Origin: an uncultured Thermoleophilia bacterium
Lineage (GTDB): Bacteria; Actinomycetota; Thermoleophilia; UBA2241
Assembly (NCBI GenBank): GCA_963777895.1
Contig: CAVZSF010000003.1
Coordinates: 124,989-188,988 of the forward strand
Length of the DNA stretch: 64,000 bases
Reading direction: 5' to 3'
The notes below the pieces were generated by a model that saw only the letters and a program-made list of their open reading frames with translations, was not told where the DNA came from and made no database searches. Position 1 is the first letter of the stretch. Each line of letters opens with the position of its first letter. This document shows, piece after piece, positions 20,051 to 59,384 of the stretch. Made by a program: the position numbers and the translations under genes.

Positions 20051-21031
20051 GTGAGGTTGGCCATGGCAACGTCTGAACATCGTCTGCGGAAGCTTGCCGG
20101 CGTCGTCGCTGCTCCCGAGTTCGTCGTCCCCTGGCTCGACCGCATCTACGACCCCATCGAGATCGACCTGGTGTTCGCGCTGGCGGATGGACCGCTCTCG
20201 CGGGCAGCGCTGGCCGAGCGTCTCGGGCTTGCGCCGGCTGACCTCGCGCCGATCGTCTCGCGGGGCTACCGTCGTGCCGTCCTGGCCGGCGACGGCGACG
20301 AGCTCGCCGCCGACACCTTCTACGAGCGCTCCGCCATGTGGGCCCGCTCCGCGGGCCGCGGCAGCGTGCCGGACGACGTCCACAAAGCGCTCGCCGACTG
20401 GTGGCTCGACGCCTACGTCGACTCGGTGCGCGATGGTCTAGCGAAGCTCCAGGGCGGGGCCCCCGAGCCCGGCGGCGACGCCGACTACGCCTACCTTCTG
20501 CTCAGCGAGGCGGAAGAGATGGTGCGCCGCGAGGAGCACGTCTACCTGTGGCGCTGCGACTGCCGCACGCTCATGCGCGCCTGCGACCAGTCCGTGGACA
20601 ACTGCCTCCGCTTCCACAACGACCGCGACGTCGGGCTCGAGATCTCGAAGGAGCTCGCCATCGACATCCTGCGCGAAGCCGACGCCGCAGGGCTCATGCA
20701 CTGCGACTACGTCGGCTTCGGTGGGCCGACCGACCCGCACGCGATCTGCAACTGCTGCACAGACTGCTGCCAGCCCCAGCTCGCGTCGCAGCGTCTGGGG
20801 GTGAGCGACGTCTGGCCCCGGCGCCGGTACCTCGCGAGCGTGTCAGCAGACGCCTGCACTCTGTGCGGCACCTGCACCGAGCGATGCCCCTTCGGCGCCC
20901 TGAGCGTCGCGGCCACCGGCGCCGACGAGAGCCTCGTCCTTGCCGAGGATGAGTGCCGCGGCTGCGGCCTGTGCGCGACGACCTGTCTGGAAGCGGCCAT
21001 CCAGATGGTGGCGCGGCCCGGCGCGGCCTGA
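20051..21031 (+). CDS. Cys-rich iron-sulfur protein with two C-terminal 4Fe-4S ferredoxin motifs. Uncharacterised family; paralog of 22834..23796.
   Basis: CDCR…C…C, CNCCTDCC, then CTLCGTCTERCP and CRGCGLCATTC (CxxCxxCxxxCP-type). Confidence 0.6.
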   Translation: MRLAMATSEHRLRKLAGVVAAPEFVVPWLDRIYDPIEIDLVFALADGPLSRAALAERLGLAPADLAPIVSRGYRRAVLAGDGDELAADTFYERSAMWARSAGRGSVPDDVHKALADWWLDAYVDSVRDGLAKLQGGAPEPGGDADYAYLLLSEAEEMVRREEHVYLWRCDCRTLMRACDQSVDNCLRFHNDRDVGLEISKELAIDILREADAAGLMHCDYVGFGGPTDPHAICNCCTDCCQPQLASQRLGVSDVWPRRRYLASVSADACTLCGTCTERCPFGALSVAATGADESLVLAEDECRGCGLCATTCLEAAIQMVARPGAA

Positions 21032-21398
21032 GTGGCGCAGACACAAGGCGCGTGAGCGGCCATGGCCCGCCGCGCGGCCCGAGGGACGCAGACACCTCAC
21101 CCGCCGCGCGCGCCTGCTTGCCGACACCCGGGCGCGTGACTATCATCGAGAGTGCCGCACAGTCCCGAGGAGCGCCGCCATGCAGCCACTCATGAAGCCT
21201 CAGCCGCTCGGAGCGCTGGACTTCGTCATGCGCTGGCGCCCCAACTGTCACTGCTGGACAAGCGAGCCGCTCTTCCACGGCTAGACCCGGGCCGCGAGTC
21301 CGGCGTCGGCCCGACCGGCCGCCGCCCTCAGCCTCCGCGGCGCCAAGGTCCTGCACGGCGCCGCGCCTTCCCCTTCACCATGACGCCTGGGAGGCGCA

Positions 21399-22841
21399 GT
21401 GACAGACACCACCTCGAAAGTCGGCCGGCTGGCCTTTCTGAGCGAGGACGACAAGGGCCGCGTCTACGACGCCGCCCTGACGATCCTCGCCGACATCGGT
21501 ATGCGCGTGCATCACGACGAAGGCCGCGCGATCATGCTCGCGGCGGGCTGCACCCTGGACGACGACAAACGCGTGCACGTGCCCCGAGAGCTCGTCGCTC
21601 GGGCTCGCGAGACGGCGCCGGCGAGCTTCATTCTGCACGACAGGACCGGCGCTCCCGCCTTTACCGTCGGCGGCTACGCGGCCGTCTTCGGAACCGGCTC
21701 TGACCTCATGCATCTCTACGATCTGGAGAGCGGCGAGCGACGGCGCACGTCGCTCGCCGACGTCGCGACGTGCGCCCGTCTCTGCGACGCGCTCGACAAC
21801 ATCGACTTCGTCATGTCGAGCGCGTATCCGCACGAGGTCGAGTCGCACCGCGCGTACCTCGAGGAGTTCCGCGCGATGGTGCTCGGCACGACGAAGCCGC
21901 TCGTCATGACGGCCGAGGGCGGCCGCGACCTCGAGCGCATGTGGGCCGCCGCCTGCGAGCTGCGCGACGGCCCCGAGCAACTCCGCGCCCGACCGTACTT
22001 CGTCGTCTACGACCAGCCGAGCAGTCCGCTGGACCATCCGACGGACAGCGTCGACAAGCTGCTCTTCTGCGCCGACGCCGGCATCCCCGTGATCTACTCC
22101 CCCGCCCCCCTGGCCGGAGGCACCGCGCCGATCACCGTGGCCGGGCACGTGGCGCAAGGCGTCGCCGAGTCGCTTTTCGGGCTCGTGCTGCACCAGCTCC
22201 ACCGGGCGGGATCCCCGTTCCTCACGGGGATGGGCCCGGCCGTCCTCGACATGGCCACCGCCCAGTCCTCCTACAACGCCCCGGAGTACCTGCAGGCCTA
22301 CGCCTGCTTCGTGGAAATGGCGCGCTGGCTGGACCTGCCGAACTGGGGCTACGGCGGCACGACGGACGCGCAGCTCGTCGACGCGCAAGCCGGCATGGAG
22401 ATCGCCGAGCTGACGCTGCTCAGCATGCTGCTCGGCTCCAACCTCAACCACGACGTCGGCTACCTCGACTTCGGCATGACGGGGTCGCTCGAGCAGATCG
22501 TCATCGTCGACGAGTACATCGCCATGAACCGCCGCCTGCTCGGCGGCGTCGAGGTGAGCGACGACACCCTGGCCCTTAACGTCATCGCCGACATCGGTCC
22601 GGGCGGCGACGCGCTCAGCCACCGGCACACTGCCAAGCACCTGCGCACCGCACAGTGGCGGCCACGCATCCTCAACCGCAAGGGCCACGAACGCTGGATC
22701 GAGGACGGCGCGCCGGATCTCCGCGAAGCGGCCCGCCGGCGCGCCCTGCAGGTCCTCGACGCGCACGTCCCGGCGCCGCTCGACGAGCACGCCAGGACGC
22801 GCATCGACGAGATCGTCGAGGGGTTCCAGACAGATGGCTGA
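21399..22841 (+). CDS. MttB-superfamily methyltransferase with no internal amber codon (presumed non-pyrrolysine; quaternary-amine or methylamine:corrinoid methyltransferase family)
   Basis: 480 aa. GGGAGG before GTG. TMA-methyltransferase-family N-terminus (…YDAALTILADIGMRV…) and C-terminus (…DDTLALNVIADIGPGG…HRHTAKH…). No internal stop. Confidence 0.85.
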   Translation: MTDTTSKVGRLAFLSEDDKGRVYDAALTILADIGMRVHHDEGRAIMLAAGCTLDDDKRVHVPRELVARARETAPASFILHDRTGAPAFTVGGYAAVFGTGSDLMHLYDLESGERRRTSLADVATCARLCDALDNIDFVMSSAYPHEVESHRAYLEEFRAMVLGTTKPLVMTAEGGRDLERMWAAACELRDGPEQLRARPYFVVYDQPSSPLDHPTDSVDKLLFCADAGIPVIYSPAPLAGGTAPITVAGHVAQGVAESLFGLVLHQLHRAGSPFLTGMGPAVLDMATAQSSYNAPEYLQAYACFVEMARWLDLPNWGYGGTTDAQLVDAQAGMEIAELTLLSMLLGSNLNHDVGYLDFGMTGSLEQIVIVDEYIAMNRRLLGGVEVSDDTLALNVIADIGPGGDALSHRHTAKHLRTAQWRPRILNRKGHERWIEDGAPDLREAARRRALQVLDAHVPAPLDEHARTRIDEIVEGFQTDG

Positions 22842-23796
22842 GCGCCCGGCGGCAGTCCAGGGCTCGTGCAACGACCGCCTCGAGAAACGCCTCGAGAGAC
22901 TCGCGGCCATCGTGGGCGCGCCGCCCTTCATGCTCCCCTGGCTCGACCGCTTCTACGAGGAGACCGAGGTCGACCTCGCCTTCGAGGCCGCGGAAGGGCT
23001 GCTGCCGGGGACGCACCCGGAGGACGCGCTCAACCGGTCGTATCGCCGTGCGGTGCTCGACCGTGACGGGGAGGCCTGGTCGCCGGCGAGCTTCCATGCG
23101 CGCTACGAGCTGTGGGCCCTCTACGAAGACTGGCGCGACATCCCGCAGAGCGTGCGCGACGAGCTCAACGTGTGGGAGCTCGACGACTACCTCGTCGAGG
23201 TCGGTGACGGCATCGCCTCGGTGCGCGAGGGACGGAGCACCGAGGGCGACCAGCTGGACTACACCTTCCTGCTGCTCGAGGAGGCGGAGGAGCTGCTCCG
23301 CGCCCGTCCGGCGGTCTACCTCTGGCCCTGCAACTGCCGCGCCATGATGGGCCGGTGCGAGCACTCGCACGCGGTCTGCCTGCGCTTCGACAACAACCGC
23401 GGCATCGGCTGGGAGATAAGCCCGGAACGCGCCGTCCAGATCCTGCGCCAGGCAGATCACGAAGGGCTCGCGCACACCGCGTATCTCATGAGCACCCACG
23501 GTCACCACGGCATCTGCAACTGCTGCAGCGACTGCTGCTTTCCGATCCTCGCCGGCGAGAAGCTCGGAGCGGCCGACGTGTGGCCCGTGCGCCGCTATCT
23601 TGCCGTGATCGACGACGCCGAGTGCACACGATGCCGCCGCTGCGAGAAACGCTGCCCCTTCGGCGCCATCTCGTTCGGCGGGAAGGGAAGACCCATGCAG
23701 ATCGACCCTCACGTGTGCCGAGGCTGCGGCCTGTGCTCCACCGGCTGCGAAGAAGAATCGATCCTGATGGAAGCGCGGGCGCCTGTTCCGGCCTGA
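22834..23796 (+). CDS. Cys-rich iron-sulfur protein, paralog of 20051..21031. Translationally coupled to the upstream MttB-family gene.
   Basis: ATGGCTGA start/stop overlap with the MttB gene. Same Cys pattern as its paralog (CNCR…C, CNCCSDCC, CTRCRRCEKRCP, CRGCGLCSTGC). The N-terminal regions align with the paralog (…PWLDR.Y…DL.F…). Confidence 0.6.
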   Translation: MAERPAAVQGSCNDRLEKRLERLAAIVGAPPFMLPWLDRFYEETEVDLAFEAAEGLLPGTHPEDALNRSYRRAVLDRDGEAWSPASFHARYELWALYEDWRDIPQSVRDELNVWELDDYLVEVGDGIASVREGRSTEGDQLDYTFLLLEEAEELLRARPAVYLWPCNCRAMMGRCEHSHAVCLRFDNNRGIGWEISPERAVQILRQADHEGLAHTAYLMSTHGHHGICNCCSDCCFPILAGEKLGAADVWPVRRYLAVIDDAECTRCRRCEKRCPFGAISFGGKGRPMQIDPHVCRGCGLCSTGCEEESILMEARAPVPA

Positions 23797-23850
23797 GAGC
23801 GCCCGCAGGCCGCGGGGTCGCGACGTCGTGATGGCGGGTCAGAGAAAGAG

Positions 23851-28108: not shown

Positions 28109-29257
28109 TCAGTTGTACACGGGCTGGATCTCGCGCCACGTACCGCCCACGACACGCACGTGCAGCGCCACGATCCTGTCGAGCGCGTACAGGACGCCCG
28201 GGTCGAACATGATGGTCTGGTCGCCCTTGAGGACCACGTCCCCCTTGGCGATCAACATACCGTGCACGACGAAGCCGCCGTTGTTCGTGAAGGGCCCGTC
28301 CGTGTAGATGAGGCCGTAGAAGTCGCCGTTGCCACCCACGGTCAGCCCCCCGCCGCCCTCGAGGATGAGGATGCCCGGGAGCTTGGGGAGAGCAATCGTT
28401 CCGGCGCCGTTCGTGGTGCCGTTCGGCAGGTTGCTCAGGCCGTTCGTCTTGATGTACGTGATCCCCTCGAGTGCCGAGTTTGCCCAGCTCGCCACGGAAG
28501 GGGTCGTGTACTTGTGGGTGGCGGAGTCCTTGAGGATGGCCAGCACGTCCGGAGACAGGATCGTATCGGCGGAGGGCGTGGAACTGCCCGTCTGGCCACT
28601 GACGTTCGTGTCCAGCACGTCACCCCACTGGCTCGCGGGCAGGAGCCCGCTCGTGCTGTAGAAGCCCCCGGCGACTTCGGCCACGGCGGGGTCACCCGTC
28701 GTCGCCACATCCGCCTTCCAGTTGTTGATGGTCACTGTGCCGGGCGTGTTCAGGGCCACGTTACGGCGCAGCAGCGGGCTGAGGTTCACCAACTGCAGCT
28801 GCGCTTGGACGCGCGAAGCGCTGTTCCCGACACCCGCCTGTGCCTCGACATACAGCAGGCCGTCCTTGTTGGCGTCATACGGCACGCCGTCGGCACGGGT
28901 GACCTGTCCGTCTTCGTTGGTGTCCGCGTTGTCGAAGTACACGACGCTCACGAACGGCCCCTTGCCGGTCTTGGGGTCCGGGAAGTCCGTCGTGCTGAAG
29001 CTGTTCCTGAACGCGGTCGTGTCGAAGGTCGGGGCGGTCGTCGTCGGCCACTTGGCCGGAGCGCTCAAGTCGTACATCACCCGGTCGAGCGCAGCCTCCG
29101 CCACGTTGAACGATTTCGCCCTGTTCCGGTCCGTGCGCGTGTTGCTCTGTGCGTTCACTACGAGGATCACGAGCGACGAAGCAAGGATGGCGAGCGCGGC
29201 GACGATGCCGATCACCAGCACCAGGCTCGCGCCTCTCTGTGACTTAGCTCTGCGCAT
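28109..29257 (-). CDS. Type IV pilus minor pilin / pilus assembly protein with a PilX-N-terminal-like domain
   Basis: N-terminal TM (GASLVLVIGIVAALAILASSLVILVV) followed by …RAKSFNVAEAALD, characteristic of PilX_N. Confidence 0.6.
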   Translation of the reverse strand: MRRAKSQRGASLVLVIGIVAALAILASSLVILVVNAQSNTRTDRNRAKSFNVAEAALDRVMYDLSAPAKWPTTTAPTFDTTAFRNSFSTTDFPDPKTGKGPFVSVVYFDNADTNEDGQVTRADGVPYDANKDGLLYVEAQAGVGNSASRVQAQLQLVNLSPLLRRNVALNTPGTVTINNWKADVATTGDPAVAEVAGGFYSTSGLLPASQWGDVLDTNVSGQTGSSTPSADTILSPDVLAILKDSATHKYTTPSVASWANSALEGITYIKTNGLSNLPNGTTNGAGTIALPKLPGILILEGGGGLTVGGNGDFYGLIYTDGPFTNNGGFVVHGMLIAKGDVVLKGDQTIMFDPGVLYALDRIVALHVRVVGGTWREIQPVYN

Positions 29258-29266
29258 GCTTGCCCC

Positions 29267-29917
29267 CTAGAATTGCCGCGAGTTTCGCGGTTGGACCGTC
29301 GTCACGATCTCCGTGCGATTGGGCGAGTGGCCTGGGTTCAGGTCGATCAGCATCCTGATCTTCACCGATACGATCGAGCTCGTCGAGACGCCGTCCCACG
29401 CCGCCAGGCGTCCCGCGCTGTCGTACATGTAGTACTCGAACAAGGGGGCGCTCCCATCGGTCGGGCGGACGCAGTTCGTCGCCACCTTCATCTTCCTGTC
29501 GGTGTAGAAGGAGAGGCCCGCGGCGCCGTCGCTGTCTTCCACGCGGTAGAGGTCGTAGGTGCCCGAGGACGCCACGTATCGCATCAGGTAGCCGATGAGG
29601 ACAGGCGAGGTATTCGCCGCGTTGGCCGCGTCCGAGTCATTGAACAGCGTCGTGAAGTAGAGGCGATACGGCCTCGCCGTGCGGATCGATGCATAGCCCG
29701 GGACGGGCTGAGCGTCCCTGATCTCGCGGCTCAGCCGCCTCGTCGCGTCACGCGCGTACTCTCTCGCCTTCGTGTCCTTCGTCGTGAAGGAGTACGAGTC
29801 GCTGAGCGCGATCCACGAGGTGATGAGCATGGCGGATATCACCGTCGTGATGGTCATGCCCACGAGCAGCTCGATGAGGGTGATGCCGGCCTGTCGCTTG
29901 TCGCGTCTTCCTGTCAT
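29267..29917 (-). CDS. Prepilin-type N-terminal cleavage/methylation-domain protein (pseudopilin, PilW-like)
   Basis: GITLIELLVGMTITTVISAMLI class III signal peptide motif. Confidence 0.7.
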   Translation of the reverse strand: MTGRRDKRQAGITLIELLVGMTITTVISAMLITSWIALSDSYSFTTKDTKAREYARDATRRLSREIRDAQPVPGYASIRTARPYRLYFTTLFNDSDAANAANTSPVLIGYLMRYVASSGTYDLYRVEDSDGAAGLSFYTDRKMKVATNCVRPTDGSAPLFEYYMYDSAGRLAAWDGVSTSSIVSVKIRMLIDLNPGHSPNRTEIVTTVQPRNSRQF

Positions 29918-29933
29918 CGCAGCCCCCTCGCCC

Positions 29934-31669
29934 TCAGAAGACGAAGTCGATGGTTGTGGCGTTCGTGAGCATGGTGGTCTGTGACTTGGTCACCTGTACC
30001 GTCCCGACGTAGGCGACCGCGGTGACCCGGTAGGAGCCATAGGGCATGGGAACGGACGCCAGCCAGATCGCCGTGCCGTTGCTCGCGATGGACTTCGCCC
30101 CCTTACTGACGTCGGGGTCCGGATCGAGATAGGTGACCGTCACGGTGGCGTTGGCGTTGTAGACGCGCACGGTCAGAGAGTAGTTCTGCGCGGTGCCAGT
30201 CGTGGCCGTCACCGCGGCGCTGGCCGCAGACGTGTTCAGCGCCCCATCGACCGCCTTGAGATAGTAGCTGCGCGGCGACGTCGACCACCCGGGGACGTCG
30301 TTGTAGCTCGTCTGTCCTGGTCCCACGGTCGCGAGCAGGCTGCCGTCCCGGTAGATCTGATAGGCGAAGACGCCCGTCACCGGTTCGCCGACCGCGCCGG
30401 ACGGATCGGAGGCAGCCGCCCAGGTGAGCCGGACGTTCGGCCCCTGCGCCGTCGCGGCAAGCGATGCAGGCGCAGTGGGCGCGGTCTTGTCGGCCGACGA
30501 GACCAGGGGTGTGAGCGCCACGACGTTGCTGTTGGCGCTGCGCAGACCGAACGTGTCGACGACCTGCACGCGATACTCATAGGCCGTGCCGGCCACGACG
30601 CCCCGGTCGATGAAGAAGGTCGACAAGGCGCCGGCGGCGGCGTACGGGTCGGTCGGCCATGTGGTGCTGCTCGCTTCCTTGCGGAAGACGTCGTAGTGGT
30701 CGATGTCGGTGTCGCTCGGGGCCGCCCACGAGAGACTTGCCCCGCCGACGCCCGCCACACCGCTGACGATCACCGTCCCCGGCGCCCCCTTGTCGAGTGC
30801 AAAGGTCAGCTGCCAGACGTTGCCTGGCTGTCCGGCGACGATGCCCAGGGTCGGACTCGGGCTTGGGGTCGGCGCGGGGGTCGGCCCGACGAGGGTGCTG
30901 CCGGTGTAGGCGACCGCGGAGAAGGTGTAGGTGCCGTCGGGTGCCCCTGCAGCCACCGTCCAGGTCGTCGTGAACACCCCGTTCACGTGCTCACTGTTGG
31001 CTGCGTTGTAGCTCACCGTGGACGTGTAGGAGCCTGTGCCGCCCACCCTGTTGATGCGGAACTCGACGCGTCCCACACGCTGGCGGTCGGCGGCGGAGAT
31101 CGTCGCCGTCAGGGTAACGGTGGTGGCCGAAGAAGCGGACGTGTGGATATAGGAGCCCTCGTGGTCTACGTCCGACGCCAGTGGCGTCACCGCGAGGTTG
31201 GTGATCTGCGGTCCGGAGTCTTGGCGCGTAATGTTCGTACGGAGCACGACGCGCCTGCCAGCCGCGGAGCCCGAGCCAAGCCAAGTCACCGTGACGGTCA
31301 CCTGCTTGTAGGCGAGCACGCCGGTCGTGCTGCCGGTCGGCTTTACCTCGGTGACGCCGTAGTCGACGGTGAAGTTCTTCGAGGCGCTGCCCACCTGCGT
31401 CGTGACGGTGGGGCCGAACTGTCCCGCTGAGAAGCTGGGGTTGTAGAGGTTCGGCGTGGAGGCCGGAGTGGCCGAGTCCGCGACGATCTCGTCGTAGTCG
31501 AGCGTCCGGATCCTCTCGAGCTTGTCCTGCGCGATGTTGACCGCAACGGTCTTGGCACGGTCCTCCGAGCCCTTGCCGGCCGCCTGCACGAACAACGGCA
31601 CCATCGCCGCGAACGCGATGCCGGCGATGACGATGGTGACGAGCAGTTCGACGATGCTGAATCCCGCAT
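29934..31669 (-). CDS. Large pilin-like protein: prepilin N-terminus plus fibronectin-III/Ig-like repeats and a Pro/Thr/Ser linker. Apparent one-base deletion in the start region.
   Basis: With a GGG->GGGG correction the N-terminus reads MRGFSIVELLVTIVIAGIAFAAMVPLF…, a canonical prepilin leader. Downstream are TPAPTPSPSPT and FN3-like segments (…WAAPSDTDIDHYDVFRK…, …TWAAASDPSG…YQIYRDGS). Confidence 0.6.
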
Positions 31670-31984
31670 GGCCTCGCCGGGAGGCCTGTTCATGCCCTGC
31701 CTCCGGATAGCGAGGGGAACGTCTCCTCGTTCTATCGGCCGCACGCCGGAGAGCATGAGCGTCCGGGCCGATTTTCGTTGCCGCCGATGGCAGCGTCGTT
31801 AAGGCTTCTCCCTAGGCTCACTTTCCCTGTGGGCTCAGTACGAGCAGATGCGTGGCGGGTCGCTCGAGTCTGGATCCGGGCTCCGGGACGGGACTAGAAC
31901 ATTCGTCTAGCTGAGGAGAGGCGCGCGGCAGCGGAGGATCTGCCGGCATGCCGGCGCGGCGCGGACGGTGCGCCGCAGGACTCG

Positions 31985-34903: not shown

Positions 34904-35078
34904 GAGAGCAGTATGCCACAGCGGAGGGCGCGACTGTCGTCTGCCACGCGCAGTGGAGCCCCCGGACCGCCAGCCCCGGGGGGCCGAGGTGGTCTTGCGG
35001 CGGCGCGCGGAGCGGCGGGCGCGCAGGCGGCGCCTGTAGGCGGGCGGATGTCAGGCGGCGGGCGTCAGGCGGAGGGCG

Positions 35079-43458: not shown

Positions 43459-43475
43459 AGACCCGCCCCGCGCCC

Positions 43476-48438: not shown

Positions 48439-49560
48439 ATGAGGATCGAAGTCGACTGCGAACGTATCCGCGCCAACGCCGAAGCGGTGACGAAGCTCTG
48501 TGCACGACACGGCATCGAGGTCGCCGGCGTCACGAAGTGCTGCTGCGGCGAACCCGAGATCGGCCAAGCCATGCTCGCCGGCGGCTGCACGATGCTCGCG
48601 GATTCGCGCCTCGACAACGTCGCGCGCCTGCGCGCGGCCGGCATCGAGGCGCCCATCCTCCTGCTGCGCCTGCCGGCGATCAGCGAAGCCGCCCAGGTGG
48701 TCGAGCTCTGCGACATGAGCCTGAACAGCGAGGTCGACACGGTGAGGGCCCTGTCGGCCGCCGCCGTCGCGCGGGGCGTGGTCCACCAGGTCCTGTTCAT
48801 GGTCGACACCGGCGACCGCCGCGAGGGCGTCATGCCGGAGGAGGCCGGCGCAGCCTGCCGGCAGATCATGGATCTGCCGGGCATCGACCTCGCCGGCCTC
48901 GGCACCAGCCTCAACTGCCTCTGCGGCGTCATGCCGACCCCTGAGAACCAGCAGGAGTTCGCCGACATCGTCGAGCGGGTCGAAGCCGAGTTGGGCGTGA
49001 CCTTCCGTCTCGTGTCGGGCGGTCACACCGCCAACCTCCACCTCGTGCAGTCCGGCCAGGTGCCGGCGCGCTTCAACCACTTCCGCGTCGGCGAAGGCAT
49101 CCTCACCGGCACCGATTTCTCGACATGGGCTGAGCTGCCTATGCCGTACACCGACGCCTTCAAGGTCTACGCCGAGGTGATCGAGCTCAAGGACAAGCCC
49201 TCGGCGCCGGACGGCACCTGCGGCCCCGACGCCTTCATGGAGGTCCATGAGTGGCCCGACCTCGGCATCCGGCGTCGCGCCATCGTCGCGCTCGGCGAGA
49301 TCGACCTGCGCACCTCGAGCCTCAGGCCCATGCGCCCCGGGGTCACGGTGGTAGGAGCCTCCTCCGATCACCTCGTGCTCGACGTGACCGAGGCCGATCC
49401 CCCGGTCACACTGGGCGAGGAGCTCGGCTTCGACACGGTCTACCCGGCGGTCTCGACCTGCTGGTCCGGGTCGTGCTCGATGAAGGTGGTGCATCCCCTC
49501 ACGGCAGCGGCAGTCGTAAGAGCGGGCCGCTCCGATCTCTGCATAAGGTCGCAGCAGAGT
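48439..49560 (+). CDS. Alanine-racemase-fold PLP protein (putative amino-acid racemase, YhfX/ornithine-racemase-like). 3' end uncertain.
   Basis: GAGGAGG RBS. The N-terminal region (…GIEVAGVTKCCCGEPEIGQAMLAGGCTMLADSRL…) and overall layout resemble YhfX-like racemases. The listed frame has no stop before it overlaps the convergent MttB gene, so a frameshift or uncertain end lies near 49500-49560. Confidence 0.55.
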
Positions 49561-49624: not shown

Positions 49625-51081
49625 TCAGCTGCCGGCGAGCTCCCTGTCGGCGCGCGTCACGATGGCGCGCAGCTCCGCGGTCACGTCTTCCGGGAGCGGC
49701 TGCGGCTCGTAGGTCGCAAGGATCTCGTCGGCCATCTCCGTCGCCTTCTCGAGGGCGCCCTTCTTGCCCTCGCGCAGCCACACGTCGTACGGCGTGCGGT
49801 CCCAGACGGTCGGCCGCCAGATCTCCTTCATGTGCTGACGGGTGTGTCTCTCGGCCAGATACGTCCCGTTGGGGCCGACCCGCTTGATCACGTCCAGCGC
49901 CAGCGTTTCGTCGTCGACCTGCACCCCGCCGGCGACCTTCTGCACGATGCCGTAGATCTCGGTCTCCATGATCATGTGCGGGTAGCTCAGGATCTTCGAC
50001 CCGTTGAGCAGGCCGCAGCCGTTCATCATGTCGGCACACGTCATCACGCTCGCGAAGGTGCTCAGGGAGTCGTCGATGGCGGCCTGCCAGTCGGGCTCCT
50101 TGGCGCCGGTGGCCATGGTGCCCATCGCCATCGGGATGCCGTAGAAATGGGCGAGCTGGGTGGAGGCGGCGGCGAGCAGGTAGTCCTCGGGCGAGCCGCC
50201 CGTGTAGCCGCCGGTCTTGAGGTCGATCACGCTCGGGGCGCCGGCGAAGAAGCAGGGTACGCCCGGGAAGGCGAGCTGCAGCATGACGACGCCGCTGAGG
50301 GCCTCGGCGTTCTGGACGACGAGGTTGCCCGCGATCGTGGCCGGCCCCGTGCCGGCGCTGAGCGGCATCGGCATGAAGCCGCTCGCGAGGCCGTGCTCGG
50401 CGGCGACAAGGTTGGCCTCGAGGTTGGGGCCGTCGTGCGCGAGCGGGTCCACGGCGCACTGCATGAAGCTGACGATCGGGCGGCGGCGCAGCTCGTCGGT
50501 CCCGCCGACGATCGCCGCCGCCATCTCAACGAGGTAGCGCGCCGCCTTCTCGCCGACCGTCGTCACCGCCTGGTAGTGCTTGCTCGTGTTGGTGAGCACG
50601 GCCTCAGAGTCGTGGAGCGCCTTGCTCGCGGGCGGCACATCCTGCGACGTGACGACCGGCCCCCAGTAGTAGCTGACGGCCGGGAGCGCGTCGACGAAGC
50701 GGGCGGAGGTGGCGGCGTCGGCCTTGGTCGAGGGCCGCTTCTCGCCGGTGTGGTGGTCGTAGACGAACACGCCGGAGCCGTCGTTCGAGAGGTAACAGTG
50801 GCGCCGGTCGATGAGCATGTCGGCGGCCGCGTCGCGGCCGGCGAGCACGTACTCCTCCGGCGCCTGCTTGACCGCCTCCATGACGACGGCGCGCGGGAAG
50901 CGGACGACCTGCGTCGCCCTGTCGACCGCGCAGCCGCCCTTCTCGAGGACGTCCAGGGCGCGTGCGCTCGGGAAGCGCACGCCCGTCTCCTCCATCACCT
51001 CGAGCGTGGCTTCGTGGATGCGTTCGAGCTCGGACGGCGAGAGCACGTCCCAGCGGAGCTTCGGTTCGATGGGGTTGATCC
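49625..51081 (-). CDS. MttB-superfamily methyltransferase with no internal amber codon (presumed non-pyrrolysine), tandem copy B
   Basis: Start MTARINPIEPKLRWDVLSPSELERIHEATLEVMEETGV… (GAGG before ATG). C-terminal …DDETLALDVIKRVGPNGTYLAERHTRQHM…PLPEDVTAELRAIV. Confidence 0.85.
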
Positions 51082-51126
51082 TTGCAGTCATCTGGACCTC
51101 ACGATGGGTACTTGTCTGGGACGTTC

Positions 51127-52540
51127 TCAGGCGGTCGGGCGGGACGCCTCCACCTCGGCGAGGATGCGGTCGAGTCCGGCCTTCACCTCGTCGCCCAGCT
51201 CGAAGGCGCGCGGCTCGGCGCGAAGCGCCGCCACGCGCGCCCGCAGGCGGTCGACCAGGGTCGGACGACCCTTCCTCCACCCAGTGGGCGTGGCGCGAGG
51301 TGTCGAAGAGGTCGCTCTGCCAGATCCCGCGGAAGTGCTTGCGCGTGTACGGCCGGGCCAGGTGGCTGCCGCCCGGCCCCACCGCCGCGATCTCTTCGAG
51401 GGCGAGCGCGTCGTCGTCGACCGGCAGCGGCGCCATGAACGCCTTGGCGTACCCGATGAGCTCGTTGCCGAAGAGGATCGACTCGTAGCTGCTCTGCAGC
51501 CCTGCCTCGAGGTAGCCCACGTCGTGGAGCAGCGTCGCCCGCGAGAGCAGGCCGGTGACGGCGGTGATCGCGGCCTCGGCGCTCCACTGCCCGTCGAGCG
51601 ACTTGCTGTCGCTGTGCGCGGCGTAGCTGAAGCTCGGCAGGTCGTACCAGCGGGCGAGGTCGGTCTGCGCCTGATAGCCCTGGATCGGGCCGGCGGACGC
51701 GTACACCTCGTTCATCGTGCGCATGTTCATGGCGCCGACGCCGACACCCCACACGAAGGGAGCGCCGGGCTTGACCGCCTGGCTCAGCACGAGGCCCGCC
51801 AGGGTCTCGGCGTTGGCGACCACGATGACGGCCGCGATGCTGGCCGGCGCCGTCGTGCCCGCGTTCGGCGCCGGCGCCCAGATCAGCGGGATGTCGAGCT
51901 CGGCGCACGCCATGACCTTGCTGGCGCCGTCCTCGTCGAACATGAGCGGCGGCACGGGCATGGCGTAGATGCCGAAGCTGCCCGCCTCTCCAGCCAGGGC
52001 GCACATCTCCTTCATCCGGCCCAGGATGTGGCCGTCGCGCGGCGCCACCAGGAGCGGCTTGCGCGTGCCGCGCACCATGGCGTCCACCTGCGCCAGGTCG
52101 TCGATCGCCTGGGGCACGTCCTCCGGCAGTCCCATGCTCATCACGAAGTCGATGTTAGGCAGCTTCTCGCAGAGCGCCGCCTGGCCCTCGACGTCGGCCT
52201 TCACGACGCGGCGGCGCTCACGCGTGTCGGGGTCGCAGATATAGAGCACGTCGGAGCCGGTGCCGCAGTAGGTATGACGGGCGTCCAGCACGAGCGGCTC
52301 GGTCGTGCCGCCGCGCGGCTTCAGCTGACAGCCCCGCGACGCGCTCTTGAGGGCCGCCTCGACGAGGTCGGCCGGGATGCGCACGCGTGTCCCGTCGACG
52401 CGCGCGCCGGCGCGCGCGAAGGTCTCGACCGCCGGCGCATAGCGCACCTCGATGCCCGTCTCGGCGAGCACCTGCAGGGTGGCCTCGTGCGCCCGGCGAC
52501 AGGCGTCGTCGCCCCAGATGGTCAGGCGAGCTTCGTTCAC
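51127..52540 (-). CDS. MttB-superfamily methyltransferase with no internal amber codon (presumed non-pyrrolysine), tandem copy A. Apparent one-base insertion in the GGG run at 51269-51271.
   Basis: MNEARLTIWGDDACRRAHEATLQVLAETGIEV… through …DDALALEEIAAVGPGGSHLARPYTRKHF…HAHWVEEG, then a frame change to …RPTLVDRLRARVAALRAEPRAFELGDEVKAGLDRILAEVEA*, a plausible family C-terminus. In the unshifted frame the ORF reads through into copy B. Confidence 0.75.
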
Positions 52541-52819: not shown

Positions 52820-54316
52820 GTGCCGATGAAGCGCAACCTGCACGCCGGCCACCCGCGGAGGGGTGGCCTCAGCCTCAACGTCTTCACCGAGGCAGAGCTC
52901 GACGACATCCACCTCGCGTCCCTCGAGGTGCTGGAGCGCACCGGGATGTGGGTCGAGGACGACGAGGCGCTCGCCATCTTCGCGGACGGCGGCTGCCGCG
53001 TGGACCGCGAGAGCCGGATGGTCCGGATCCCGCCGCACGTCGTCGAGGACGCGATACGCAGCGCGCCACCGCTCTTCGTGCTCGCCGGGCGCGACCCGGC
53101 CAACGACATCGTGCTCGAGCCCAGCCGCGTGTCGTTCTGCAACTTCGACGAAGGCATCATGGTCAACGACCTGCGCAGCGGCGAGCATCGCGAGCCCACT
53201 CTGAGCGACATCGCCGAGTTCGCCCGCCTGGTGGACGCGCTGCCGCACATCGACTGCTACGAGCCCGCCGCGGGACCGTCCGACGTGCCGCACGAGACAG
53301 CGGTCCTGCACGGCACCGAGGCCGCCCTGCACAACTGCACGAAGTGCGTCGGCACCGAGGCCATTTCGGCGTGGGAGGTCCGCAAGGTCCTCGAGATGGC
53401 GGTCGCCGTCATGGGTAGCGAAGATGCCCTCCGCGAACGGCCGATCGTAGGCTTCGGCTGCTGCCCCGTGAGCCCGCTGAAGCTGCCGCACGACGCCACC
53501 GAGGTGATCGTCGAGACGGCACGCCGGGGCATCCCCTGCGGCGTGCTCTCGATGGCGATGTCCGGCGGGTCTTCCCCCGTAACGCTGGACGGCACGCTCG
53601 TGCTGCACAACGCGGAGGTCCTTGCCGGCATCACACTCTCGCAGCTCACAGAACGGGGCGCCCCGGTCGACTACGGGACCTCGACCACGGCCATGGACAT
53701 GAAGCTGGCGGCGGCGAGTGTCGGGTCGCCGGAGCTGGCCCTGTTCAGCGCCGCCGTGGCGCAGATGGCGCGACGGTACCTGATCCCGAGCTTCGTGGCG
53801 GGGTTGTAGGCGGATTCGAAGCTCGGTGACGCGCAGACCGGTCACGAGAAGACCCTCACCGGCCTGATGGCTGCGTTGGCAGGGGCCAACCAGATCTACG
53901 GGGCGGGGATGATCGAGTCGGGCGTCACCTTCGACGGAGCGCAGCTCGTTATGGACGACGAGATCGCCGGGATGATCAAGCACTGTGTCATGGGCATTTC
54001 TGTGAGCGACCCCACCATGGCGGTGGAGGACATCGCCGAGGTCGGACCGTTCGGGGACTTCTTGAGCCTGGACGCGACACTGCGGCACATGCGGGCACTC
54101 AGCCAGCCGGCGCTGCTCGACCGTCGCGTGCGCGAGGACTGGGAGGAGCGCGGCGCCAGCGACCTGTACGCGAGGGCGCAGGCGAAGGCCCTCGAGATCG
54201 TCGAGGGCCACAAGCCCGCGCCGCTCGACCCCGACGCGGCGCGGCAGATCCGCGCCATCGTCGAGACCGCCGACCGTGAACGCGGCGTGGTCGCCCCGCC
54301 CGTCCAGTACACCTAG
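52820..54316 (+). CDS. mttB: Trimethylamine methyltransferase MttB of the pyrrolysine type, with an in-frame amber codon (TAG 53807-53809) at the position expected for pyrrolysine
   Basis: GGGAG RBS. Continuous frame over 498 codons, interrupted only by TAG at codon ~330. Flanking sequence …LSMAMSGGSSPVTLDGTLVLHNAEVLAGITLSQLT…[70 protein letters not shown]… closely matches archaeal and bacterial Pyl-containing MttB around Pyl334 (495-aa M. barkeri protein), as far as I can recall without an alignment. The gene also terminates with TAG. Confidence 0.75.
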
Positions 54317-54493: not shown

Positions 54494-55579
54494 TCAGTCG
54501 GTATCGTTCGGGTCGGGCAGGTACGTCGTCGTGTGCGGAGGCTGCGGCGATGTGCCGTGCGGGGGGATCTCCGCCGAGGTAGGCTGGCGCCCCTCGGCGC
54601 CCGCGAGGTCCGCTTCCGGCGCCTCGCCGGTCCCCACGTCCACGAGCTCGTCGCCGCGGTCGAGCGGCATCTCACCGCCCGGGCCGGGGCCTGTCGGCAT
54701 CTTGGGCAGGTCCGTCCCGGCCTCCGCGATCGGACTGTCGCCCCCCGGCTCCGTGATCCCGAGCTCGGCCGCGTGCCGGGGGTCGACCTCGGGGAGGATG
54801 TGGCGCAGGAACTGGCGGGTGCGCGGGTCCTTGGGGTTGAAGAAGACCTCGTCCGGCCGGCCCTGCTCGATGAAGAGGCCGTCGTCCATGTAGACGACGC
54901 GGTCCGCCACGTCGCGCGCGAAGCCCATCTCGTGACTCACGACGATCATCGTCATGCCGCCCTCGGCGAGCTCCTTCATGACCTTGAGGACCTCACCGAT
55001 CAGCTCGGGGTCGAGGGCGCTGGTCGGCTCGTCGAAGAGCATCAGCAGCGGGTCCATCGCCAGCGCGCGGGCGATGGCCACCCGCTGCTTCTGGCCGCCC
55101 GAGAGCTGGCTCGGGAAGTAGTCGACGCGCTCGGCGAGGCCGACCTTTCCCAGCAGCTCGCGGGCACGCTTGACGGCCGCTTCCTTGTTCTCGCCCTTCA
55201 CGAGGATCGGCCCCTCGACCACGTTCTCGGTGGCGTCCTTGTGAGGGAAGAGGTTGAACTCCTGGAAGACCATGCCGCACTTCAGGCGGATCTCGCGAAC
55301 GGCGTGCTGGAAGGCCTTGCCGTGATCGCCGCACTTGGCGTGCACGCCGCCGATGGTGATGTCGCCGGTCGTCGGGTCCTCGAGGAAGTTCAGGCAGCGC
55401 AGGAAGGTGCTCTTGCCCGAGCCGGACGGCCCGATGAGGACCACCACCTCGCCGCGCCGCACCTCGAGGTCGACGCCCTTGAGGACGTGGTTCTTGCCGA
55501 AGTACTTCTGCAGCCCTTCGACCTTGACGACGAGCTCGTCGCCGGCGCGCGGGGCGCTCGAGGGAGACGGTGTGGCCAT
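54494..55579 (-). CDS. Polar amino-acid ABC transporter ATP-binding protein (GlnQ/HisP-like) with an acidic/Pro-rich C-terminal tail
   Basis: Walker [25 protein letters not shown], and the H-loop region. Confidence 0.85.
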
Positions 55580-55580
55580 G

Positions 55581-56795
55581 TTACTGCCCCCTTGTCTTGT
55601 CGCGCTCCATGCGGCGCTCGAGCTTCGCCTGCCAGAAGCTGAAGAAGATGGTCAGCGCCCAGTAGAAGGCGGCGGCGACCACGAGCGTCGAAAGGAAGTT
55701 GAAGGTCGCCGCCCCGGCGAGCTGAGAGCGCCGCAGCAGCTCCTCGACGGTGATCACCGACACGAGCGACGTGTCCTTGATGAGGGCGATGAAGTCGTTG
55801 CCCACGGCGGGGATCACGATCTTGAACGCCTGCGGCAGCACGATCCGGCGGCTGGTCTGCCAGCTGCTCAGGCCCAGCGCCCAAGCGGCTTCGGTCTGGC
55901 CTTTCGGCACGGCCTGGATGCCGGCGCGGAAGACCTCGGTGAGATAGGCCCCGTAGTTCAGCGACAGGGCCGCGACACCGGCCCAGAACGCCGGCGGGTT
56001 GTAGCTCTCGGAAAGACCGAGACGCTGCACGACCTCGGGCGTCACCTGGTAGATGAAGATGATCTGCAGGAGCAGCGGCGTGCCGCGAAAGAGTGACGTG
56101 TAGAAGGTCGCGGTCCAGTAGGGGATTCGTCCCAGGACCATGCGCCACATGTAGCCCCAGCTCTGGTACCGCGCCCACGCCTGCTTGAAGCTCATCTTCT
56201 TGGAAAGCCGCCCAAGCGCGCCCAGCAAAGCGAGGATGCAAGCCAGAAGGATCGAGACCACCGTCAGGGCGACGGTGTTGATCGCTCCTTGCGCGATGAA
56301 GCGGAACCACGTGCGCATGATGTCCAGGCTGAAGAGCTTGCCGCCCCCGGCCTCACCCTGTGAGGCAAAGCTCCAGGAGTACTCGACGGTCTCACCAGTC
56401 GTGGTCACCAGAATGACTTTGAAGTCGTAGTCGCCCTCGGGATAGCTCTGGTCCAACTTGAACATGATCCCGGAGGTGGCCCGCGAGATGGCCGGCACCT
56501 CGCTGGGCGGCTTCGTGAGCGCCTGCTGCTTCCCGTTGATGAACAGCTGGCACTTTTCGAACGCGAGGGCGGCGCCGTTCGGGTCGTAGTTGACGATGAC
56601 CTGGTCGCCCGTCCAGTTCTCGCCACCCTTGGGGTCGTCGGGGTTCGGGATCACGCCCGTGACCTCGGGCACGCCCGAGCCCTTGACAGGGGCCGGCGAG
56701 GGCGAGTCGGCAGCCATCGCCGTGGCCGCCGTCATGAGCGCGAGCGTCAGGAGGACGGCCAGGAGAACGGCGAACGCTGAGCGTCGTCTGTGCAT
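55581..56795 (-). CDS. Amino-acid ABC transporter permease (HisM/GlnP-like) with a ~170-aa N-terminal extracytoplasmic domain
   Basis: Signal peptide plus a secreted domain, then a permease core with an EAA-like loop (…[26 protein letters not shown]…). Confidence 0.8.
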
Positions 56796-56906
56796 CGGCG
56801 ATGACCTCTTCTCGTCACGTGAGGACTGCGGCGGGGGTCCAGTGCAGACCCCCGCCGCAGCCAGCTCGATGGTTCAACCGGCCGCAGGCCGGAGCATCGG
56901 TCCCTG

Positions 56907-57785
56907 CTACTTGACCGTCAGATCGAGGCCGTTGTACCACTTCTTGGACATCTCGGTCAGCGACCCATCTTCGTGCATGGTCGTGATCGAGTAGTCCAGG
57001 AGCTTCACCCAGTCGGCTTCGCCCTCCGCGACGGCGAAGGCGAGGTCCTCGTAGTACAGCGGCTTGCCGGAGAACTCGAAGGGCTTGCCCTCGAGGATCG
57101 CCTGCTGACCGGTCGGACCGGCCGTCATCACGAAGTCCAGGTTGCCGTTCTGCAGGTCCGGGAAGGCGCTCGCGTCGGTGTCGTACGTCCTTACCTTGGC
57201 GTCGCTCTCGCTCTTGAGGTAGTCGTAGTACGTCGTGGCGGCGCCGACGCCGACGCTCTTGCCGGCGAGGTCGGCGAGGCCGGCGATCTGCGGGCCGCCC
57301 TCCTTCACGAAGACCTGACCGGAGGCGTAATAGTACGGCTGCGTGAAGTCAAGGGTCTTGTCGCGTGCGGGGGTGATCGTCATCGAGCCGATCGAGACGT
57401 CGTAGCGCCCCTGGTTGAGGGCGGCGGGGATGGTCTCCCACGCGGGGTTCTCGAACTGCACCTGGAGGCCGAGGAGCTCGGCCATCTTCTTGGCGACGTC
57501 GACGTCGAACCCGACGAGATCGCCGGTGGCCTCATCGATGGAGCTCTGCGGAGCATAGTTGGCGTCGTTCGCCACGACGACCGTGCCCTTGTCCACGATC
57601 TCCTTCGCAACGCCCGTCGGCTCATGGCCGAGGATGGTCGCGGCGCGCTCGGCCGCGGAGCCGCTCACGGCCGTTGCGGCCGCGTCGGCGGTATCGTCGC
57701 TGCTGCTGCCGCACGCAGCCAAACCGAACGCCAGCGCCAGTGCGAGCACAAGCAGCGCCGCGACGAGAGTCTTCCCCTTGCTCAT
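56907..57785 (-). CDS. Amino-acid ABC transporter substrate-binding lipoprotein (SBP family 3)
   Basis: Start MSKGKTLVAALLVLALALAFGLAACGSS (lipobox). PBP type 2 fold motifs. Confidence 0.8.
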   Translation of the reverse strand: MSKGKTLVAALLVLALALAFGLAACGSSSDDTADAAATAVSGSAAERAATILGHEPTGVAKEIVDKGTVVVANDANYAPQSSIDEATGDLVGFDVDVAKKMAELLGLQVQFENPAWETIPAALNQGRYDVSIGSMTITPARDKTLDFTQPYYYASGQVFVKEGGPQIAGLADLAGKSVGVGAATTYYDYLKSESDAKVRTYDTDASAFPDLQNGNLDFVMTAGPTGQQAILEGKPFEFSGKPLYYEDLAFAVAEGEADWVKLLDYSITTMHEDGSLTEMSKKWYNGLDLTVK

Positions 57786-57992
57786 CTGACCGTCCTTTTT
57801 CGGAGTTCCCCTGGTGGCCACCGACACTGCCGCGGATGAGCGCTTCGCACCGTCTGGCGACGGGTCGTCGATCGCGCCCTTACGGCTGCTGTCGCTTCGC
57901 TTTATACAGCACGCCAGATGGATTACAACCGGGGTCCAGCGGCCAAGACGCTACGCGCACGGCCATTTGGTTTGAGGCTAATCTTCCGGATA

Positions 57993-59384
57993 CTACGAGC
58001 GCGAGCGTACGTGCAACGCTATGAAGATATGCAGGCGAGCCGCTTGAAGTTCGTGATCGACGGCGGCGGGCAGTCGCGGGGGCTGGTGGGTGGCGAGGAT
58101 CGCCGCGACGCGGGCGTGCGCCGCGGCGACAGAGGACCCGCCTGCGCGCCTGGGACCTCGCAACGGCGGGCCGGCGACCGGCGCCGCAGGCGCCGCGGGC
58201 CGGCCCAGCCCCGTGAGATCGAGGCCCGCCACCACCTCGCGCGCCTGCGTCAGCGCGTCGGCCGCCAGGGCCATCTCCTCGTAGCTGAAGATGCGGCCAC
58301 CGGAGACCATGCCGACACCAGTGAGCATGTCGACGCCGGCCACGACCGAGAGGAAGGTCGTCGTCGTGTCGTCGAGGGCCGACTGCCAGGACGGCGCCTT
58401 CGCCCCGGATGAGTTCACCCCGCACTGCGTCGGCAGGCCGTAGAAGCGGCCGATCTGGCCGACGGCGGCGGCCATGAGGGTGTCTTCCGGGGCGCCGCCC
58501 GTGAAGTCGCCCGTCTTCAGGTCCATGACGCTCGGGATGAAGCAGATGAAGACCGGGGCGCCGGGCACGGCGGCCTCGATGACGGCGACCGCGCTGAGCG
58601 CCTCGGCGATGCCGACCACGAGAGAGCCGGCCATGGTGATCGGCGTGGTCGAGCCGCCCATCGGCATGGTGACGAAGCCGATGGGCACGCCGGCCGCCGC
58701 GAACTCGAGACCGGCCTCGAGGGTGCCGGCGTCGTTCCCCAGTGGTGTGACCGTTCCGAGCAGCGCCGAGATAGGCGGCTCCCTGCGCAGCCGCTCTTCG
58801 TCGCCCTCGCAGAGCGCCAGCGCCATCGCCACCGCCGTGCGCGCCATCCCGGGCTCGACGACCGTGACGGTCTGCACGTGCTTGCCGGTGTTGGCCAGAG
58901 CGAGGTAGAGCTCGTGCAGGCCGCGCACCTCCGCCGGCCTGTCCTGCGCGCTGACCGCCGGCCAGCAGAAGTCGATCTCCGGCATCGCGTCCACGACCCG
59001 CGCGATCGCCGCGACGTCCTCCGCGGTCGTGCTCCGCTTTCCGCCATCAGTGACGTCGTAGATCTCGACGCAGCAGCCGTCGCTGGTCATGAGCGAGCGA
59101 TGGCCGGTCTCGAGAGGCGCCGCCGCGCGCGCGCCGAGCGTGAACCGCGGCGGCGCAAGGCCGACCAGACGCCGCACCAGCTCGGCCGGCAACCAGACCC
59201 GCTGCTCTTCGGCCTTCGCCCCCTGCGCCACGAGCGCCGCCCGGGCACGTTCAGAGGGGATGAAGACGCCGACCTCGGCAAGCACCTCGAGGGCGGCCTC
59301 GTCGAGCCGCCGCAGATCGTCGCCCGTGAAGAGCGGCGCGGGCACGGCCGTGCCCGCCTTGTGTCCCTGGGTCGTCATCGCCAC
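57993..59384 (-). CDS. Divergent MttB-superfamily homolog with a shortened, low-complexity C-terminal region
   Basis: MTTQGHKAGTAVPAPLFTGDDLRRLDEAALEVLAEVGVFIP… and …VTMPMGGSTTPITMAGSLVVGIAEALSAVAVIEAAVPGAPV…. The C-terminus lacks about 35-80 residues of the canonical VGPGG…HT region and contains PAAPAAPVAGPP. Confidence 0.6.
   Translation of the reverse strand: MAMTTQGHKAGTAVPAPLFTGDDLRRLDEAALEVLAEVGVFIPSERARAALVAQGAKAEEQRVWLPAELVRRLVGLAPPRFTLGARAAAPLETGHRSLMTSDGCCVEIYDVTDGGKRSTTAEDVAAIARVVDAMPEIDFCWPAVSAQDRPAEVRGLHELYLALANTGKHVQTVTVVEPGMARTAVAMALALCEGDEERLRREPPISALLGTVTPLGNDAGTLEAGLEFAAAGVPIGFVTMPMGGSTTPITMAGSLVVGIAEALSAVAVIEAAVPGAPVFICFIPSVMDLKTGDFTGGAPEDTLMAAAVGQIGRFYGLPTQCGVNSSGAKAPSWQSALDDTTTTFLSVVAGVDMLTGVGMVSGGRIFSYEEMALAADALTQAREVVAGLDLTGLGRPAAPAAPVAGPPLRGPRRAGGSSVAAAHARVAAILATHQPPRLPAAVDHELQAARLHIFIALHVRSRS

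Follow-up and report, generated by a model that had tools for sequence, protein, structure and literature searches.

How six genes of the MttB superfamily and a reductive corrinoid activase can sustain methyl transfer when neither a corrinoid protein nor a second methyltransferase is encoded beside them is the question raised by a 64 kb stretch of contig CAVZSF010000003.1 (the whole of which is called here the window), derived from an uncultured high-GC Thermoleophilia-like actinobacterium of soil or sediment. The G+C content of the window ranges between 65% and 74%, with about 70% overall; genes were picked by their third-position GC and then scored against Pfam and NCBIfam. We consider it probable that the genes constitute two islands of substrate-specific methyltransferases (MT1) of conventional corrinoid-dependent three-component systems, which would draw on a common corrinoid protein and a common pterin-binding methyltransferase (MT2) encoded at other sites of the genome, as in Eubacterium limosum. 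On this reading it is ordinary for MT1 genes to have no visible partners, and no new mechanism of methyl transfer is indicated. The system is of a known kind; of moderate interest are a conserved cluster that combines the lysine 2,3-aminomutase KamA, the activase and MttB genes, and the association of one MttB subfamily with a family of Cys-rich Fe-S proteins.

The first island (18–23.8 kb) comprises genes for a cupin, an MFS transporter, the Fe-S protein FeS-A, the MttB paralog g1 and a second Fe-S protein, FeS-B. The second (37.4–59.4 kb) comprises the paralog g6, an ABC transporter, g5 on the opposite strand, g3a, g3b, an Orr-like racemase, g2, KamA, the activase (RACo), four EamA-family transporters, an aminotransferase and the beta-keto acid cleavage enzyme BKACE. 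In the proposed scheme each MttB paralog would take methyl groups off the methylated amine specific to it and load them onto Co(I) in a small corrinoid protein, with g5 acting on trimethylamine through pyrrolysine (Pyl) and the other five on substrates that are not MtgB-like. A pterin-binding MT2 would then hand the methyl group to tetrahydrofolate (THF), and RACo, with ATP and a low-potential electron, would return oxidised Co(II) to Co(I). KamA, the aminotransferase and BKACE would probably break down the carbon backbone of a substrate or product related to lysine, and the Fe-S proteins may act as conserved accessory redox or regulatory partners of g1-type MttB. The methyl-transfer and reactivation steps of this scheme are modelled on the established biochemistry of these families (PMC8604678, PMC13080624).

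The locus was compared with a sister sequence and with two sets of related loci. The sister sequence, the 326 kb contig_53806 of ENA ERZ25039545, was found by an exact look-up of the BKACE protein, which is identical in both, and three of its stretches (L001, L002 and L007) span 12.8–63.8 kb of the window at 97.3–99.1% identity. Similar exact look-ups of g3b, the ABC transporter ATPase and FeS-B gave no match, because the window and the public contig differ by 1–3%. A GTDB genome scan for the Fe-S family yielded 80 loci (L009–L088) from Thermoleophilia, metagenome-assembled genomes (MAGs) of other Actinomycetota and Desulfobacterales, including the Olavius Delta-1 symbiont, and a scan of JGI metagenome contigs with KamA yielded 71 high-GC loci (L089–L159), in which each feature was counted on sufficiently long contigs only. 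Many of the related MAGs carry names of the form 'MFD...bin'.

The membership of all six genes in the MttB superfamily, claimed in the preliminary description together with the presence of a single Pyl-type copy, was confirmed: each of them matches the Pfam family MTTB (PF06253, E 1e-17 to 1e-97) as well as the PDB chains of MttB and MtgB. Against the MttB equivalog model TIGR02369, with a cut-off of 525 bits, g5 (52826..54316, plus strand) scored 665.9 bits when its Pyl residue was written as K, and the five non-Pyl paralogs scored between 217 and 468 bits. Among the latter, g1 (21399..22841, plus strand; PF06253 E 3.8e-81; TIGR02369 354.8 bits) is intact in the window, and g3b (49625..51091, minus strand; PF06253 E 2.8e-97) has the top TIGR02369 score, 468.3 bits. 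The divergent, Ala-rich g2 (46805..48263, minus strand; TIGR02369 216.6 bits) matches PF06253 in two frames (E 2e-17 and 2e-31) and has a mid-gene frameshift near position 47650 in the window; a JGI metagenome scan with g2 as the query revealed no close relatives. Two further copies on the minus strand are g3a (51127..52540; PF06253 E 6.5e-66) and g6 (57993..59384; PF06253 E 8.7e-63, covering model positions 31–406 of 500), which bears an internal C-terminal deletion. The mutual identity of the five non-Pyl paralogs is only 23–38%, and they appear to be old and functionally diverged.

The comparison with the glycine betaine methyltransferase MtgB of Desulfitobacterium hafniense (PDB 2QNE/9YCE) points in the same direction. 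The six paralogs share with MtgB the TIM-barrel family, the five non-Pyl copies like MtgB lack pyrrolysine, and the identity to MtgB amounts to 25–33% (28–33% apart from g2). Glycine betaine is bound in MtgB by Y97, R312, H348 and F356 (PMC13080624). Unlike MtgB, none of the five non-Pyl paralogs keeps the full tetrad in a MAFFT alignment with 9yce: H348 is the sole residue retained in g1 and g3a, and none of the four is retained in g2, g3b or g6. The position of Pyl is occupied by Thr in g1 and by Ala in g3b. The earlier suggestion that the five act on glycine betaine, proline betaine, carnitine or butyrobetaine is weakened by the loss of these residues, and the neighbouring genes hint rather at a substrate related to lysine.

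The reported lack of a corrinoid protein and of an MT2 in the 64 kb held in motif, tblastn and Pfam searches alike. The DxHxxG...SxL...GG motif did not occur in any of the six frames of the window or in the sister-contig stretches, whereas the same scan of related loci recovered seven genuine corrinoid proteins. In tblastn searches of the window with these seven proteins as probes the best match had E = 0.002 and fell inside the aminotransferase gene, and a related pterin-binding MT2 used as a probe found no match there. Pfam scans of all plausible window genes returned no B12-binding, Pterin_bind, MtrH or URO-D domains, and there were no corrinoid or MT2 families among the precomputed gene calls of the ENA contig stretches. 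Tested as a three-component system, the window thus has MT1 and the activase; the corrinoid protein (PF02310/PF02607) and MT2 are not encoded alongside MT1.

Relatives of this bacterium do carry the canonical partners. Genuine corrinoid genes lie beside MttB genes in L023, L037, L038, L084 and L088, and in L107 such a gene adjoins KamA. A corrinoid motif was present within 10 kb in only six of the 47 Fe-S loci that bear an MttB gene, and L024 encodes MttB, Pyl-MttB and Pyl-MtbB without a corrinoid gene, so unlinked MT1 genes are normal in the lineage. A 208-aa corrinoid protein is 85–95% conserved across a very large family whose named members are Thermoleophilia (8000 matches scored). These observations favour the suggestion, made when the locus was first described, that the partners are encoded elsewhere, and by analogy with the relatives this would also apply to the genome considered here.

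The activase provides a further argument. As had been claimed for 43476..45261 (minus strand), the gene encodes an ATP-dependent reductive corrinoid activase of the RACo/RACE type, with matches to RACo_C_ter (3.8e-76), Raco_middle (7.7e-47) and RACo_linker (5e-12), that is, the C-terminal ASKHA, middle and linker domains. A frameshift disrupts the N-terminal [2Fe-2S] domain in the window; the corresponding Fer2 domain is present in the 594-aa ortholog of the ENA contig. The scores against the AcsV model (376, cut-off 800) and the RamA subfamily (122, cut-off 500) suggest a member of the RACE/RACo family that is an equivalog of neither AcsV nor RamA. To our knowledge, corrinoid proteins are the only known substrates of RACo-type activases; the presence of RACo therefore implies that a corrinoid protein exists.

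Several facts weigh against two islands of MT1 genes with shared, distant partners. The corrinoid protein and MT2 of this genome were not located in the window or in the ENA stretches, and the best 120 of 8000 scored corrinoid homologs all lie on contigs other than ENA contig_53806. Pfam, tRNA and Rfam scans of the window found no pylTSBCD genes and no tRNA-Pyl, the only tRNAs there being tRNA-Asp and tRNA-Val. Additionally, one or two of the six MttB genes, the C-terminally deleted g6 and the frameshifted g3a, may be non-functional.

The absence of dedicated partners could also mean that the paralogs and methionine synthesis draw on one corrinoid module, in the manner of MtgC/MtgD of aerobic marine bacteria, which would explain why an oxygen-exposed organism has no partner genes nearby. 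There is a precedent for such a MetH-like module in Ruegeria pomeroyi (PMC12478193), and the window encodes enzymes related to oxygen and NO, namely an ODP/flavodiiron-like protein, detected in the Pfam scan, and a qNOR. We regard this explanation as unlikely, and less likely than a shared dedicated corrinoid protein, because the lineage is rich in the highly conserved 208-aa proteins of the MtxC type; it also has stand-alone pterin MT2 proteins. Moreover, a dedicated RACo lies inside the cluster in 43 of 45 loci, and Pyl-type mttB and mtbB are typical of an anaerobic-type system.

The two Cys-rich proteins around g1 required separate consideration, since it had been proposed that the Fe-S proteins substitute for part of the system. 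FeS-A (20051..21031, plus strand) matches Fer4 families at residues 267–324 only, and FeS-B (22834..23796, plus strand) starts within g1, overlapping its stop by 8 nt, which makes co-translation of g1 and FeS-B probable. Both are paralogs (44% identity) of one family of about 320 aa, for which 613 homologs were found, mainly in Thermoleophilia/Actinomycetota and Desulfobacterales. FeS-A begins with a helical region resembling a winged helix, continues with a middle domain in which nine Cys are invariant in the alignment of the family, and ends in a ferredoxin domain with the 2x[4Fe-4S] motif; CxCRx6Cx6C and ICNCCxDCC are the other motifs of the family. An AlphaFold model (pLDDT 90) likewise consists of a helical N-terminus, a Cys-cluster alpha/beta domain and a ferredoxin domain; solved structural homologs were found for the ferredoxin domain and none for the N-terminal 250 residues. 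An MttB gene was present within 10 kb in 47 of the 80 Fe-S loci, typically a g1-type ortholog (56–87% identity, the range in which orthologs of this subfamily recur in many loci) and often immediately upstream as in the window. In L051 and L062, orthologs of FeS-A (58–59% identity) come after genes for an M20 peptidase and a cupin.

Taken to its end, the substitution proposal assigns to FeS-A and FeS-B the role of the corrinoid protein or of some other canonical component; the g1 module at least would then dispense with the classical MtxC/MT2 pair. The flanking of g1 by both genes, the overlap with its stop codon, the adjacency of g1-type MttB and the Fe-S family in many genomes and the N-terminal region without a solved counterpart all speak for it, as do eight loci in which the g1-then-FeS-B pair has no corrinoid motif within 10 kb. 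The relatives, however, render it extremely improbable. In L083 (Thermoleophilia FR_37) an operon at 3317..16352 runs from a corrinoid protein through MttB, a HAL-like lyase, two further MttB and the Fe-S protein to an amidohydrolase, a formiminotransferase, a Pterin_bind MT2, a GntR regulator and a B12-binding protein. In L088, too, a canonical B12-binding corrinoid protein is encoded near the Fe-S gene, and a partial homolog of the L083 MT2 lies at the contig end. Furthermore, neither the B12-type Rossmann fold nor the DxHxxG motif is present in the Fe-S protein model, and all characterised enzymes of the MttB family methylate a corrinoid (general knowledge; PMC8604678, PMC13080624). Since the Fe-S protein coexists with canonical partners in L083, it is most probably an accessory and not a substitute. 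It may represent a so far undescribed redox or regulatory part that belongs specifically to MttB systems of the g1 type; the uncharacterised family accompanies one particular MttB subfamily in two phyla in which MttB expansions are known.

Genes resembling those of histidine utilisation (HAL-family lyase, amidohydrolase and formiminotransferase) were observed in the L083 operon and also in L088, L078 and L064. They hint at a histidine-betaine-type substrate (hercynine or ergothioneine) or at a lyase releasing trimethylamine.

PF06253 matches the Pyl-type gene g5 in two pieces around the TAG codon (E 1e-60 and 4e-32), the N-terminal piece aligns to residues 3–332 of Methanosarcina barkeri MttB (PDB 7xcl), and in a MAFFT alignment the in-frame TAG at 53807..53809 coincides with Pyl334 (X334) of that protein, to which g5 is 44% identical. 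The best 120 homologs of g5 all stop at the TAG position (119 at 327 aa and one at 324 aa), and a short-read Logan contig agrees with the region at 99.9%; the TAG is therefore conserved and not an error. Decoding of g5 with pyrrolysine is accordingly a prediction from the conservation of this codon. A PYLIS_3 (mttB) element at 53807..53906 (plus strand), starting at the TAG, scores 61.3 bits in Rfam against a gathering score of 38, although this match may reflect mere conservation of the mttB coding sequence.

No mttC gene adjoins g5 in the window. The g5 orthologs of L113 and L116 have an mttC-like corrinoid gene as their immediate neighbour, whose place after g5 is taken in the window by the ATPase gene of an ABC transporter. 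An amino-acid ABC transporter is found on the same side of g5 in L093, L124 and L151, with g6 beyond it both in the window and in L124. Seen across these loci, the missing mttC would thus be a local rearrangement in an otherwise conventional system.

Split open reading frames (ORFs) with an in-frame TAG were also noticed beside Pyl-type mttB genes of relatives, at 11045..12439 in L003, 16674..18143 in L024 and 17686..19698 in L023. The pairs of L003 (346+109 aa) and L024 (372+118 aa) match Dimeth_Pyl, the dimethylamine methyltransferase, and that of L023 has 555+116 codons. Pyrrolysine therefore appears not to be confined to a single enzyme in this lineage. A role of KamA and the Orr-like racemase in pyrrolysine biosynthesis was considered and rejected: KamA passes the AblA equivalog cut-off, and PylB belongs to a different radical-SAM family. 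A second candidate read-through TAG, at 2979..2981, was rejected as well; the aminotransferase domain there begins 35 residues past the stop, and no Pfam family matches the ORFs upstream.

The numerous frameshifts of the window invite the view that the cluster is decaying: g2, g3a, RACo, the EamA genes and qNOR, with their frameshifts, and g6, with its truncation, would be real pseudogenes, and the missing partners would have been lost. Besides the number of frameshifts, the g3a frameshift and the g6 deletion, which are common to both assemblies, and the lack of mttC after g5, in contrast to L113 and L116, fit such a view. We consider it very improbable. In ENA contig_53806 g2 (485 aa), RACo, the four EamA genes (301, 294, 333 and 301 aa) and qNOR (785 aa) are intact, but this contig has its own, different breaks in g1 (338 aa), FeS-A (201 aa) and FeS-B (Fer4 matches lost). 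The two assemblies differ by 17–134 indels per 21 kb, mostly of 1 bp and few of them in homopolymers, a pattern that fits long-read error, and third-position GC is held at 0.87–0.95 in all these genes. For g2, RACo, the EamA genes and qNOR, the window and the sister contig do not share their frameshifts, which are therefore best read as errors of long-read assembly.

The qNOR gene illustrates the point. It had been called a relic from its frameshifted version at 13033..15226 (plus strand) of the window; the counterpart at 5..2362 of L002 encodes an intact NorB-type protein with NorB_cytochrome_c-like and COX1 domains, so the apparent relic is a frameshift artefact. The apparent pseudogenes of this window, qNOR and most of the other frameshifted genes, being assembly errors, pseudogene calls in such sequences need care.

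The g3a frameshift requires its own explanation. It is most simply attributed to one additional C within a CCC run near 51258, which throws the final ~43 codons of g3a out of frame and leads to read-through into g3b and a 971-aa ORF (49625..52540, minus strand) that recurs in the ENA contig with one amino-acid difference. In the alternative frame g3a has a normal C-terminal helix and a TGA stop at 51129..51127, followed by a ribosome-binding-site-like GTGAGG before the ATG of g3b. A natural double-MttB fusion was judged unlikely in view of the out-of-frame linker, the one extra C in a C-run and the single-length orthologs: in relatives, g3a orthologs (52–89% identity) align to a single gene of MttB length only, beside g3b-type genes, and the tandem MttB genes inspected in other relatives are separate ORFs, though of the g5/g1 type. 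The frameshift is, however, present in both assemblies. The deletion in g6 takes out some 30 residues, among them the conserved VGPGG..HT segment; it is found in both assemblies, and reading in other frames does not recover the lost part. The gene may be degenerate. Orthologs of g6 (68–76% identity) occur in L124, L131 and L154.

The gene order around KamA is highly conserved. KamA (45392..46690, minus strand) is a KamA/AblA-type radical-SAM lysine 2,3-aminomutase that scores 571.3 against TIGR03820 (cut-off 525.4) and matches Pfam LAM_C and Radical_SAM. Among the KamA loci of the JGI scan, an MttB gene ends just upstream of KamA in 41 of 42, RACo lies directly downstream in 43 of 45, EamA genes come after RACo in 33 of 34, and a class-III aminotransferase or BKACE gene is found further downstream in all 14. 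Orthologs of g3b (69–86% identity, located upstream of KamA in many loci), g3a, g5 (60–80%) and g6 recur in this set. In the window the cluster continues with the four tandem EamA genes (39772..43461, minus strand; PF00892), frameshifted there, and with a class-III (GSA-aminomutase-like) PLP aminotransferase (38316..39584, minus strand; PF00202 E 9e-52), for which a HemL-like model was the best in NCBIfam, all models being below their cut-offs, and whose orthologs in related loci are 74–90% identical. Its last gene encodes the Kce-like BKACE (37467..38300, minus strand; PF05853 E 1.3e-96), with a Lys_ferment_KCE score of 381.2 against a cut-off of 382.

The fixed association of KamA, aminotransferase and BKACE suggests a lysine-related methylated amine as a substrate. 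Two other genes of the island, present in a minority of related loci, point the same way. One encodes a PLP racemase (48439..49518, plus strand; PF01168) related to the ornithine racemase Orr (racem_Orr 330, cut-off 480), with orthologs (65–82% identity) in seven related loci. The other belongs to a polar amino-acid-type ABC transporter (54494..57827, minus strand; ATPase, permease and family-3 solute-binding protein, with matches to ABC_tran, BPD_transp_1 and SBP_bac_3), whose binding protein is closest to cystine and Lys/Arg/Orn binding proteins, below the cut-offs. The full pathway of lysine fermentation is not encoded: KamDE, Kdd and Kal were absent from the window and from the conserved cluster.

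It is possible, although less likely than not, that the MttB–KamA–RACo–EamA–aminotransferase–BKACE operon, present on at least 40 high-GC environmental contigs, constitutes a pathway not described so far, anaerobic or microaerobic, for a methylated amine derived from lysine and that, separately, the Fe-S family is a dedicated component of g1-type MttB systems. The 2,3-aminomutase, the class-III aminotransferase and BKACE would process the carbon chain, and the MttB paralogs would strip the methyl groups onto the shared corrinoid protein; N-epsilon-trimethyllysine or beta-lysine betaine may serve as examples of such substrates. A literature search linking MttB to aminomutase or trimethyllysine returned nothing relevant among open-access papers, and no description of this gene order was found in searchable papers. 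Thermoleophilia-like bacteria widely carry the fixed cluster that joins MttB paralogs and an activase to KamA, aminotransferase and BKACE, and thereby offer testable candidates for new MttB substrates; for methylated-amine turnover in soils and sediments, both the cluster and the Fe-S family are of moderate value.

An MttB expansion of this kind had seemed unusual in a high-GC genome. It is not, given the cluster in 71 high-GC metagenome loci, MttB beside the Fe-S family in 47 of 80 genome loci and the published MAGs of Actinobacteriota (PMC10805028). That study of Stordalen Mire (Ellenbogen et al. 2023) describes Actinobacteriota MAGs that express Pyl-type mttB and mtbB, along with genes demethylating methylated amines and methoxylated compounds (PMC10805028). 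Those MAGs resemble the present bacterium in the phylum-level group and in the combination of Pyl-type and non-Pyl MT1; neither the KamA–RACo–EamA–aminotransferase–BKACE synteny nor the Fe-S family appears to be described there (PMC10805028).

The closest functional precedent is E. limosum, in which MtqC serves MtpB, MtcB and MtyB alike, and in which the genes for the MT1 proteins, for MtqC and for MtqA/RamQ are found in different clusters (PMC8604678). Common to both are many divergent non-Pyl MttB paralogs, an ATP-dependent activase and MT1 genes unlinked from the shared corrinoid protein and MT2, the last of which is inferred here. Unlike that Firmicute acetogen, the host is a high-GC Thermoleophilia-like actinobacterium, its activase is of the RACo type with an N-terminal [2Fe-2S] domain and lies inside the MT1 cluster, one paralog is of Pyl type, and the neighbours are KamA, aminotransferase, BKACE and the Cys-rich Fe-S protein. 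The MttB/MttC system of M. barkeri resembles g5 in sequence, in the homologous position of the UAG codon and in passing the TIGR02369 cut-off, but differs in that the host of g5 is bacterial, mttC is not adjacent (though it is in L113 and L116), the methyl acceptor would presumably be THF rather than coenzyme M, and the pyl genes are not in the window. With clostridial lysine fermentation (KamA, KamDE, Kdd, Kce and Kal) the cluster shares the KamA equivalog and the Kce-like BKACE, whereas KamDE, Kdd and Kal are replaced by the class-III aminotransferase, RACo and MttB genes.

Two other features of the window are unrelated to the MttB genes. A region of about 1.1 kb (5377..6465), with no ORF of coding-like third-position GC and no Rfam match, may represent a gene heavily disrupted by frameshifts or else DNA without coding function. 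At 28109..31811 and 31985..35050 (both on the minus strand), genes with a prepilin-type N-terminal methylation motif lie beside a large UPF0182 membrane protein.

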